NCBI RefSeq assembly: GCF_058153355.1
Contig: NZ_CM177019.1
Length of the DNA: 64,000 bases
Direction: 5' to 3' (one strand)
Shown here: in pieces, positions 20,601-23,600 of the stretch
Layout: every line of letters starts with the position of its first letter
Position numbering within the stretch: position 1 is the stretch's first letter
Program-made: the position numbers

Positions 20601-23600
20601 GGTTTGTGTGGATGACTAAACTCGAATGGGCGATAGGTGCGGTAGTGCTGGTGATCATCAGCCTGCTTGCGACTCTCGAACCTTTTTGATGGATTACGAA
20701 AATGATGAAAAAAAGTATTCTGGCGTTTCTGTTACTCACCAGTTCTGCAGCGGCGCTGGCGGCACCGCAGGTGATTACCGTCAGTCGTTTTGAAGTGGGT
20801 AAAGACAAATGGGCATTTAACCGCGAAGAGGTGATGCTGACATGCCGACCGGGCCATGCGTTGTATGTTATTAATCCGAGTACCCTCGTGCAGTATCCTT
20901 TGAACGATATCGCACAAAAGGAAGTCGCCAGCGGGAAGACCAATGCCCAGCCCATTTCGGTGATTCAGATTGATGATCCTAACAATCCAGGTGAAAAAAT
21001 GAGTCTGGCACCGTTTATAGAGCGAGCTGAAAAACTCTGTTAATTACCTAAAATAGCCTTTTGATTTCCAATAAAAAACCGCCTCAGTTCTTTCACCAGA
21101 ACAGGCGGTTTTTAACATTCAAGCTGATGACCACCACGCTTTTTATTGACCATTTTGCACGCAAACTGGAAAACCTGGCGTCGTCATCTATTCTTAAAGG
21201 GCAAGGCAACTAAGCCCTGCATTAATGCCAACTTTTAGCGCACGGCTCTCTCCCAAGAGCCATTTCCCTGGACCGAATACAGGAATCGTATTCGGTCTTT
21301 TTTTAATTGCATTTGAAATCAATTGGTTGCAAATGTCTCCCCGAAATTCCCCGAAATTTACTCGAATTTCTGTATTCCGGTCTTTTTTGGTTATATCACA
21401 ACCAAAATACATTTAACAATCCATTTACGTTAAAATCAGAGCAGTAAGTACGTTTTTTCTCTCTCATCAAGATACATTTTTGTTGTCTTCTCCGATGTGT
21501 GGCCAAGTAGACGCTGAGCAAATTCTTCTCCACATGTTTCTTTGTACAATCGTCCAGCCAGGCTTCTGACTTCGTGAAAAGTTGGTGGGTTTTCACTGAA
21601 CTGGATACCTGTTAATTTTCTGGCTGCGACAAATTTCTTTGTCAGGCCGTCCGGGTGAATGCTGCCGTCAGGGCTGTTTTTTCTAATCCCGGCACTGATT
21701 AGATAATCCCCCCTACTTACCATGCGGCACTGTTCAACTACTGCACCAAGTCGTAAACCAGCGACAGGAAGGCTGAGTGACAGGGGGATAGCAATCATCA
21801 TTCCTGTCTTAATTTGCCTGATGTGGAGACGATCATCATAAATATCACTGAACCGCATATTCGTTATGTCTTCGCGACGTTGTCCTGTTACAAGGGCTAA
21901 ATCCATAGCTAATGGGAACCATGCCGGAAGTTGATCTGCTGCCTCCCTGATGCAGTTGTATGTCTTTAGTTTCAGTCGTTCTCTTGTAACTACTATTTTC
22001 GGTGCTCTTGTTGGCGTGACTGGATTTTGAGATATACGTCCTTCAACAATGGCCTCGCGAAACATATCAGACAACACAGAACGCATTGATCCTGCCATTG
22101 TGTTTTTCCCTCCTTCAATCCACAAATCAAGAAACTCGGCAATATGGCGAGTGGTTATTTCTGTCAGTAAAATCTCTCCCAATTTTTCTTTTATTGTCTC
22201 CAGTTGATTTGCCCGAATTTTATAAGTATTTCTGGACACTTTTCTCCTTATAAGAATCGTTTTGTAACGTTCAATCCAGTCTGCCATAGTAAATGAGTCG
22301 AACCCTTTAAGCTTTTCAATTAAGGCAGCAGGAGAGTAGTTTTTGTATATATAATGATTTGCTTCAATTGCCTGCGCTACTGCATCTCTTCTTGAAATTT
22401 TACCTAGTGTAAATTCTTCTTTCGTCAGAGGGTTGCGCCAGTAATATGCTTTGTCTCTCCTTCGATATGTTAAGTTTCTAGGCAAATTGGGATCGTATTT
22501 TTTCCGCTGCATGTTTTAACTTCTCCATTAACGGACTGTCTCTCCCTTGTCGCCCATTAGGCTGATGGTGTGTTATATCGGTATCAACCTTATTTGGGTT
22601 GATATAGAAAGCCTCCGGAACCACCCTGTAACTCCTCCCGTGTAGTTCAGGTGCAGGATAAATGTTTCCATTCCTTGCCCATCGTCTCAGCGTTGATATT
22701 GATGGTGGGTTATCCGGATATCTGAGTTTTCCCCACGTTTTGAGTGTCACAAGATTCATTGCCATACCTCTCACGATATGACCGCCAGTAAATATACAGA
22801 ATACTGGCGGGTGTGGTTGATTTTTAATAATCAGCTATGAAGTTCTAATCTGGATATAATGAAATTCACGAGGACTGAAGTTTCTCGCAATTAAAATTTA
22901 TCAGTTTTACTTTCTGCTCTCTGGAAACGCCTGCTTCTTTTTCCCCTGAGAGCATTTTTTCGCATTCTGATTTCGTTAGTTTTGTCTTTGAGTATCTTGT
23001 CCAGCTGGTAGGAGATCCACCTTCCTTTTCAATAGTGGCTGTAATTTTATACATGAACACCTCCATTAATATTTTCAAAAACCGTGTCCAAAATGCACTT
23101 GGTTTTACACCGGAATATTCTCATCGTATCCTGCTTGTTGCGTTTCGTTTTGTGTTTGTGGATCCGGGAATGCATATTCAACGCCTTCCAGTTCAATCCA
23201 TAGTGCATTACGACCAGCTTTGATTGTCGGCCAGTCCATACCTTTGATTCTTTCCCATGAGCGGGAGGTGAATGTTTTTTCCAGCAAATCAGCTTTTGCG
23301 CGTTTGGCGTCGTTACTGGTGCCCCCATGGTGCTTGTTGAGCAACTCGATAATTTCATCAAGTGCGATTTCTTTTGCACGCTTTTCTTTTAGCCATGTCG
23401 GTGTACCGTCGTTGGCAAATAATTCACTGTTATCCCGTGAGGTATCGATGCCGAGGTGTTCACCTCCCAGGTTAAGAAACTCGATATGAGGAAGAAAGTT
23501 TTTAAATGTTGGGTTTGAAAATACCTGTCCATCAATACGGGTGGAGCGATCTTTTAGTATTCTGGCGGTGCGCCACACCTGACCGGTTTCTATGTTCATT

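Follow-up and report, generated by a model that had tools for sequence, protein, structure and literature searches.

Evidence for the left attachment site of a lambda-like prophage in the 3′ end of the host small RNA gene sdsR (ryeB)

In Salmonella, phage PhiW104 uses the terminal 23 bp of ryeB, which also lie within ryeA, for its insertion, as the work of Balbontin et al. 2008 (J Bacteriol 190:4075) is related in secondary accounts (PMC7380047, PMC3333887, PMC3603311). According to these accounts, PhiW104 lysogeny at this place reduces ryeA expression and increases that of ryeB (PMC7380047; also PMC3333887, PMC3603311). In addition, the ryeB site is described there as a repeated insertion hot spot in Salmonella (PMC7380047, PMC3333887). 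RyeB has also been used as the target label in the name of a Citrobacter island. Expression of SdsR, the small RNA (sRNA) of about 100 nt encoded by sdsR (ryeB), is known to be RpoS-dependent in K-12 and Salmonella (PMC3333887). Here, we analyzed a stretch of 64,000 nucleotides from contig NZ_CM177019.1 (RefSeq assembly GCF_058153355.1), called the window below, in which the integrase gene (int) of a prophage lies downstream of yebY. We found, with high confidence, that the junction between host and prophage is the left attachment site (attL) of a lambda-like prophage and that this prophage has inserted at the 3′ end of sdsR, a host gene. The target is the 3′ end of sdsR, which is also internal to ryeA, and this is a parallel to the targeting of tRNA genes.

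A 1-kb query across the junction region was searched against 5,426 complete E. coli genomes. The host sequence up to 21305 was common to 5,425 of them, and in all but 227 genomes the match stopped at position 406 of the query, which is window position 21305 and the last T of the SdsR T-run. The order in the K-12-type empty site (attB) is yebY, sdsR, pphA, and the alignment diverges directly after the SdsR T-run. In the reciprocal search with the empty site, the uninterrupted yebY-sdsR-pphA site was found in 5,189 genomes. Meanwhile, this int was found at attL in 227 genomes, and the matching right junction (attR) was likewise found in 227, which means that about 4% of complete E. coli genomes (227/5,425) carry a prophage at the sdsR site. 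The carriers include O55:H7, O111, O121 and ipaH-bearing strains. The initial annotation of this region had proposed a left prophage junction next to int and a comparison with an empty site. Against the 5,425 E. coli genomes, this comparison confirmed such a junction and placed it at 21305/21306, at the 3′ end of the sdsR RNA gene; from the attachment (att) core to the stop codon of int at 21436, the distance is 131 bp.

The host DNA before this junction carries more than yebY. Rfam covariance models, run over window positions 19000–24000 with the curated gathering cutoffs, returned two full-length sRNA genes, sdsR and its antisense partner ryeA (Table 1). The setting of sdsR is as expected, with yebY immediately upstream, pphA downstream (the latter in the empty site) and a predicted 3′ terminator. 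This terminator was the sole terminator-like site in a scan of 20950–21600. Its stem contains the palindrome GACCGAATAC (21271–21280) and GTATTCGGTC (21288–21297), whose arms are 100% complementary with a 7-nt spacer. In its rebuilt form, the SdsR terminator folds at −15.8 kcal/mol (z = −4.0), an energy equal to that of the K-12 terminator. The palindrome with its T-run is the SdsR terminator, the 3′ end of a host gene.

The direct repeat, the palindrome, the tandem repeat and the 3′ end of int at 21436 listed in the initial annotation were all found at the positions given there. What these features were taken for is another matter. The core genome had been ended at the yebY terminator, whereas host DNA with two full-length Rfam sRNA genes runs on to 21305 in 5,425 of the 5,426 genomes. 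The palindrome and the first copy of the direct repeat had been offered as arm sites; the former is the stem of the SdsR terminator and the latter is the att core. It was right that no tRNA gene is at the junction, the only tRNA genes of the window being a cluster at 40935–41245, but wrong that integration was intergenic, the target being the sdsR 3′ end internal to ryeA. The junction looks intergenic because genome annotation omits sRNA genes; in fact the insertion is into a regulatory RNA locus. The main value of the present analysis is this corrective one, since an apparent intergenic insertion is re-read as a hit on a regulatory RNA locus.

The att core was defined by comparing attL, attR, attP and attB in the lysogens FDAARGOS_943, DEC5A, FDAARGOS_1287 and MFDS1022581, two free attP forms and K-12 attB. 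The segment ACAGGAATCGT was identical in all compared sites. In the four lysogens (4/4), attL has the host flank on the left (ggaccgaat) and phage alleles on the right (ATTCGGTCTTTTTTT), and attR has the phage flank on the left (ttgacgaaa) and host alleles on the right (GTTCGGTCTCTTTTT). Since host and phage flanks and alleles swap between attL and attR, strand exchange takes place within 21279–21289. In the window, the alleles A21290 and T21299 match attP, not K-12 attB. Judging from these alleles, the final ~16 nt of sdsR (21290–21304) are phage-derived. Whether the repeats are host sequence, on which the initial annotation had let its proposal depend, therefore has a mixed answer: the palindrome and the first copy of the direct repeat are the 3′ end of a host gene, though with these last nucleotides from the phage, and the second copy is phage DNA.

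The crossover interval includes the 7-nt terminator loop AGGAATC (21281–21287), with the 10-bp inverted stem arms around it. By analogy, the stem arms are probably two inverted core-type binding sites of the integrase (Int), and the loop is probably the overlap region of strand exchange. The 26-mer core is unique in the window, with 0 copies expected by chance. In the Flyfo siphovirus Tbat2_3 (L006, ~2640–2675), the core loop is AGGATTG, not AGGAATC, with the same stem arm and T-run. This suggests that Tbat2_3 may target a host with a different sdsR terminator loop and that the phage core tracks the host sRNA.

We found no second copy of the core in the 64-kb window, either with the 26-mer (≤3 mismatches) or with a 15-mer (≤2 mismatches); thus, attR is outside the window. 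The related prophages are ~42–47.5 kb long, as estimated from hit coordinates, and the right end of this one would fall past 64000. Both results agree with the earlier statement that the other prophage end lies beyond the window. In the related lysogens examined, the core is a direct repeat at both ends (4/4), and 227 genomes have both junctions. For example, attR of FDAARGOS_943 lies between the ipaH3 gene and pphA, directly upstream of pphA, and reads ...ttgacgaaaACAGGAATCGTGTTCGGTCTCTTTTT followed at once by ATCTGTTAAAAGCC... The attR of this prophage would read ACAGGAATCGTGTTCGGTCTCTTTTT, then ATCTGTTAAAAGCC and pphA. Furthermore, an intact attP with the P arm, core and P′ arm contiguous was present in the deposited phage genome PP818812.1 and in IMG/VR contig L010. 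Its sequence is ...ttgacgaaaACAGGAATCGTATTCGGTCTTTTTTTaattg..., and from there the P′ arm known from the window extends to the int stop codon.

Two observations concern these comparison sequences. The right end of the FDAARGOS_943 prophage (L003, NZ_CP065615.1 858000–900000, 9785–14436) contains an IS1 in the tail-fibre region and the type III effector gene ipaH3, a cargo of the Shigella/enteroinvasive E. coli (EIEC) type that adjoins the sdsR att site in this genome. In addition, PP818812.1 (L004; attP at ~46100–46431) bears the name 'Actinobacillus phage vB_Apl-pPE4'. Since it shares 98% Int identity with this prophage and its attP core copies the enterobacterial sdsR terminator, Actinobacillus looks doubtful as its host.

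Table 1. Features of the host–prophage junction and its surroundings (window positions)
Feature	Position	Strand	Basis or remark
yebY coding sequence, 113 amino acids	20702..21043	+	Open reading frame list; named yebY in aligned RefSeq genomes; final host protein gene before the junction
Hairpin 3′ of yebY, perfect 11-bp arms AAAAACCGCCT / AGGCGGTTTTT, A/T runs flanking both	21074..21113		Inverted-repeat search
ryeA (sraC), conserved body, antisense to sdsR	21163..21308	-	Rfam RF00101 SraC_RyeA, 172.4 bits vs cutoff 37, full-length
sdsR (ryeB) sRNA gene, complete	21204..21304	+	Rfam RF00111 SdsR_RyeB, 111.9 bits vs cutoff 38, model 1-100 of 100
SdsR rho-independent terminator, 11-bp stem, 7-nt loop AGGAATC, T-run	21270..21304	+	Terminator scan and folding
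att core, 26 bp, duplicated at both prophage ends with 2 allelic differences; attL copy	21279..21304		attL/attR/attP/attB comparison
Crossover interval ACAGGAATCGT, 11 bp	21279..21289		Allele segregation, 4/4 lysogens
Phage P′ arm of attL, core to int stop codon	21306..21435		Empty-site homology ends at 21305; contiguous with P arm in free attPs
Candidate integration host factor (IHF) site (H′-like) AATCAATTGGTTG	21317..21329	+	Exact match to consensus WATCAANNNNTTR; +33..+45 from loop centre
Three tandem ~10-bp repeats TCCCCGAAAT, TCCCCGAAAT, TTACTCGAAT; candidate arm-type Int sites	21338..21367	+	+54..+83 from loop centre
Second copy of core half-site and T-run, GTATTCCGGTCTTTTTT	21372..21388	+	Direct-repeat search; conserved P′-arm element
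Lambda-family tyrosine integrase, 358 amino acids	21436..22512	-	Pfam PF00589, PF22022, PF09003
Excisionase (Xis), lambda "Exc" family	22478..22774	-	PF07825, 51.8 bits; annotated excisionase in relatives

The P′ arm was compared among four lineages, drawn from the E. coli type (Int 87–99% identical), the Salmonella type (ZC-S1_prp and L066–L068, 72–74%) and Tbat2_3 (50%). From int to the core, the order was constant across the lineages: GACCG(G)AATA(C/T), three tandem AWTTTCGRGG units, a spacer and the core. In 40 distinct sequences of E. coli-type relatives, the candidate IHF match varied only at the N positions 21323–21325 and by G/A at the R position 21329, and the Salmonella-type attPs retain AATCAA-N4-TTA with other N bases. 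Next to this match, 21333–21339 was the most variable part of the P′ arm among the 40 distinct sequences, and 21352–21377 was invariant in them. Of the tandem units, the two copies of TCCCCGAAAT at 21338–21357 came from the repeat search, and the degenerate third unit TTACTCGAAT at 21358–21367 was read from the sequence. Furthermore, the P arm has three copies of a related motif, YYYGAAAW, all on this strand and situated roughly from −160 to −125.

It is plausible that the repeats at 21338–21367 are arm-type sites for an Int with a lambda arm-binding domain. The P′ arm has a lambda-like layout, with an IHF site, three arm-type sites, an extra core half-site and the int stop codon; the conservation of this layout is observed, and binding at its sites is predicted. 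The features are not due to chance, as the attPs of phages whose Int is 72–74% and 50% identical have a second copy, tandem repeats and a core in an unchanged order. The initial annotation had expected an att core together with arm-type and IHF sites in this region, and a core and plausible sites of both kinds are indeed there. Its suggestion that the tandem CCCCGAAATT repeat is an arm-type site gains support from the conserved layout and the arm-binding domain of Int. An IHF candidate was found in the region as well, at 21317–21329, though not at the site that had been implied.

The two GTATTC(C)GGTC copies had also been read as arm-type repeats. The first is the core, and the second is a copy of the core half-site in the P′ arm. 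They form a direct repeat, GTATTCGGTCTTTTTTT (21288–21304) and GTATTCCGGTCTTTTTT (21372–21388), that differs by a 1-nt insertion and has a spacing of 84 bp. The second copy was kept in every lineage: it was present in both free attPs, and in other relatives it lacks the extra G and equals the core half-site, as exactly GACCGAATAC in L029 and L067 and as GACCGAATAT in Tbat2_3. It is phage P′-arm DNA that copies the core half-site, and is neither host DNA nor the att core. Since both free attP forms contain it, the second copy is not a relic of an earlier insertion. Directly after it, at 21381–21403, there is an 8-bp perfect inverted repeat, TTTTGGTT-N7-AACCAAAA. This inverted repeat is invariant in the E. 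coli-type P′ arms except for a rare variant at 21396 and, on its left edge (21383), the length of the T-run, and it is poorly kept in the Salmonella-type phages.

In L023 (IMG/VR UViG_2728369554_000022, ~2600–2660), exactly the 84 bp between the second copy and the core are deleted, with the junction in the shared AAAAAAGACCG. The deletion takes out the IHF site and the three arm repeats; thus, the L023 prophage is probably unable to excise. We rank the possible roles of the second copy as an accessory core-type Int site, then a weak back-up terminator, then a duplication kept by linkage. That it is a working third core-type Int binding site, retained at 50–98% Int identity and absent from the lambda model, is a tentative proposal which we consider possible but not probable. 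If it were true, a third core-type site could help to assemble the integrative or excisive complex or bias one against the other, and recombination of the second copy with the true core, as in the L023 deletion, could yield locked-in prophages.

Other explanations of the junction and its repeats have to be weighed. One could hold that the prophage sits in plain intergenic DNA after yebY, with the core genome ending at the yebY terminator and the repeats and palindrome serving as Int or IHF arm sites. The junction without a tRNA gene, the RefSeq record without a feature between yebY and int, and the reality of the repeats all fit such a view; yet 21163–21308 holds two curated sRNA families at full length, practically every E. 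coli genome has this stretch, no terminator other than the palindrome is predicted here, the palindrome is part of the host gene, and the first repeat copy is the att core. We regard it as extremely improbable. The free attP forms bear on another alternative, in which the second copy marks the true attL and 21306–21371 is the remnant of an older element at the same site, after tandem or sequential integration. In PP818812.1 and L010, 21306–21388 is contiguous with the P arm and the core, the same element order occurs in the Salmonella-type and Tbat2_3 attPs, and the neighbour of the second copy lacks the ACAGGAATCGT crossover segment. These facts stand against the insertion hot spot in Salmonella, the resemblance of the second copy to the core with its T-run, and the loss of exactly the inter-copy DNA in L023, which would suit an older element. 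An older-element remnant at 21306–21371 was ruled out because the stretch is present in the free attP forms, and we hold this alternative for very improbable.

Two further alternatives concern only what the P′-arm repeats do. The second copy and the third repeat (ACTCGAAT ... ATTCCGGT and the T-run) could form a back-up terminator against read-through from sdsR or phage late genes antisense into int, or a sib-like element controlling int mRNA. The plus strand allows an imperfect stem of 8 bp with CTTTTTT after it, sdsR read-through is known in K-12, and there is no other terminator between sdsR and int. However, the sequence folds no better than shuffled sequence on either strand (plus strand −5.5 kcal/mol, z = −0.7; minus strand −2.7 kcal/mol, z = −0.2), the second copy is absent from the terminator-scan results, and Tbat2_3 has no T-run after the motif on the strand in question. 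With fold energies at the shuffled level and no report in the scan, a terminator or sib-like hairpin was rejected as a candidate, and we judge such a role to be rather unlikely. Alternatively, the tandem CCCCGAAAT repeats and the second core-like copy could be without function, having been left behind by duplication or slippage in the AT-rich sequence that lies downstream of int. The degenerate motif does occur at chance density genome-wide, the arm-site role is sequence-based, and close relatives differ too little for conservation statistics to be strong. Against this, the three-repeat layout persists at the same distance from the core at 50–74% Int identity while the spacer diverges, 21352–21377 is invariant in the 40 distinct sequences against the variable 21333–21339, and the arm-binding domain of Int requires such sites. 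A lack of function thus has a low probability in our opinion. We prefer the reading of the junction as attL in the sdsR terminator with a lambda-like P′ arm.

Several points weigh against this preferred reading. The direct repeat of the prophage was deduced from genomes whose left junctions are 96–99% identical, with attR outside the window, and the best junction match in the genome collection was 98.8% (FDAARGOS_943). The assignment of the loop as overlap and the stems as core-type sites draws on the 11-bp bound and on the analogy with tRNA-gene att sites. In the P′ arm, Tbat2_3 is without a clear IHF consensus. The arm motif has 5 same-strand copies in the 234 bp around attP against ~0.1 expected, but YYYGAAAW was defined after the sites had been seen, which weakens this clustering statistic. 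In addition, YYYGAAAW was not enriched across the complete phage genome (46 found, 47.9 expected). Finally, the effect on RyeA and SdsR levels in E. coli leans on the Salmonella analogy.

If the prophage is at attL as described, the consequences differ among the genes of the locus. Integration rebuilds a complete sdsR, because attP carries its own 3′ stem arm and T-run. By folding, attP alone is without such a hairpin, and the terminator formed on integration equals the native one in stability. On this sequence and folding evidence, sdsR is preserved after integration. Meanwhile, rebuilding sdsR still truncates its partner, because the antisense ryeA overlaps the terminator. Counted from the sdsR start in K-12, the ryeA promoter occupies +132..+341 and the 3′ end of SdsR is at +100 to +102 (PMC6610125). 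The ryeA promoter and 5′ end are beyond the junction, and phage DNA occupies 21306 onward; thus, they are carried to attR with pphA. Of ryeA, the window has the gene body and lacks the native promoter and 5′ end. This promoter would be moved to the far prophage end, together with pphA and the initial ~40 nt of ryeA; in related lysogens, that end is ~42–47 kb off. At the scan threshold, the minus strand of the P′ arm yielded no sigma-70-like promoter. Furthermore, sdsR-pphA read-through transcripts are known in K-12 (PMC6610125), and the insertion would sever this read-through.

By analogy with PhiW104, a decrease of RyeA and an increase of SdsR are likewise expected in lysogens of this prophage. 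All 227 carriers would have a rebuilt sdsR, a promoterless ryeA and a pphA uncoupled from sdsR read-through. SdsR and RyeA act as a toxin/antitoxin-like pair, and the targets of SdsR include tolC, mutS and porin mRNAs. Lysogeny at sdsR could shift stress and envelope phenotypes. In addition, the anatomy of attP supplies targets for mutagenesis, including the 11-bp crossover window, the IHF site, the three arm repeats and the extra half-site.

Int has the catalytic domain PF00589 (61.1 bits), a central core-binding domain and the N-terminal arm-DNA-binding domain PF09003 at residues 4–61 (28.1 bits against a cutoff of 22). It aligns full-length to lambda Int structures (5j0n, 1z1b; E = 5e-72), with the alignment starting at residue 8. 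All six catalytic residues are conserved, as R212, K235, H313, R316, H338 and Y347 align to R212, K235, H308, R311, H333 and Y342 of lambda. The identity is 39–42% to the Int of HK022, 434 and HK97, 72% to a Salmonella prophage Int and 50% to a metagenomic siphovirus Int.

Further inside the prophage, a full-length RalA antitoxin sRNA was found at 22870–23048 on the plus strand (Rfam RF02694; score 203.9 bits, cutoff 170), and it runs antisense to an open reading frame that resembles ralR. The pair is a rac-type type I toxin-antitoxin module, and relatives annotate ralR at the same position. The four clustered tRNA genes deep in the prophage (40935–41245, plus strand) are Met-CAT, Arg-TCT, Thr-TGT and Gly-TCC, and are presumably phage-borne.

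On the host side, the hairpin at 21074–21113 is likely the yebY terminator. RyeA is ~272 nt long and its 3′ ends are reported as transcription termini (Choi 2019, PMC6610125); from this published length, the same hairpin may also act as the RyeA terminator on the opposite strand. Three small open reading frames, at 21194–21412 (minus), 21225–21416 (plus) and 21307–21447 (plus), were treated as spurious in view of their overlap with the sRNA genes and the att site and because no coding sequence is annotated there in RefSeq relatives. The host flank (window 19500–21305) is only ~96% identical to most complete E. coli genomes, and by this measure the source may be a Shigella-like or otherwise divergent Escherichia lineage.

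Compared with lambda and HK022, the prophage has the same xis-int-attP gene order, an Int that aligns full-length and an arm-binding domain. As in lambda, an IHF consensus (about +33..+45) comes after the core, and then three tandem ~10-bp repeats (about +54..+83). The positions of H′ and P′1–P′3 in lambda are similar to those of the IHF match and the repeats in the window. However, attB is an sRNA terminator here and the gal-bio intergenic site in lambda, the arm-type consensus is unlike that of lambda, and the sites here are candidates. The lambda P′ arm is not known to have an extra core half-site.

Elements that integrate at the 3′ end of a tRNA or tmRNA gene likewise have as attB a symmetric stem-loop of a conserved, structured RNA gene (Williams 2002, cited by PMC3603311). 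In both cases there is a 7-nt loop between inverted repeats, and the element brings a replacement 3′ end with which the gene is rebuilt. The difference is that those elements use an anticodon or T stem-loop, and this prophage uses a stem-loop that serves a regulatory sRNA as its rho-independent terminator.

In the literature, we found no account of an E. coli/Shigella prophage family at the sdsR site, Balbontin 2008 being covered through secondary accounts. PhiW104, known here from such accounts, shares with this prophage the target (the last ~23 bp of ryeB, internal to ryeA) and the swap of the 5′ part of ryeA for phage DNA. The differences are that this prophage has an E. coli-like host, an Int that is a 72–74% relative, and a core of 26 bp in which two positions differ between alleles. 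The Salmonella-type phages ZC-S1_prp and L066–L068, with an Int 72–74% identical to that of the window, have the same core and P′-arm layout. Thus, the Salmonella precedent is already known, and the present locus is a further prophage with lambda-family Int and Xis that has the SdsR terminator as attB.

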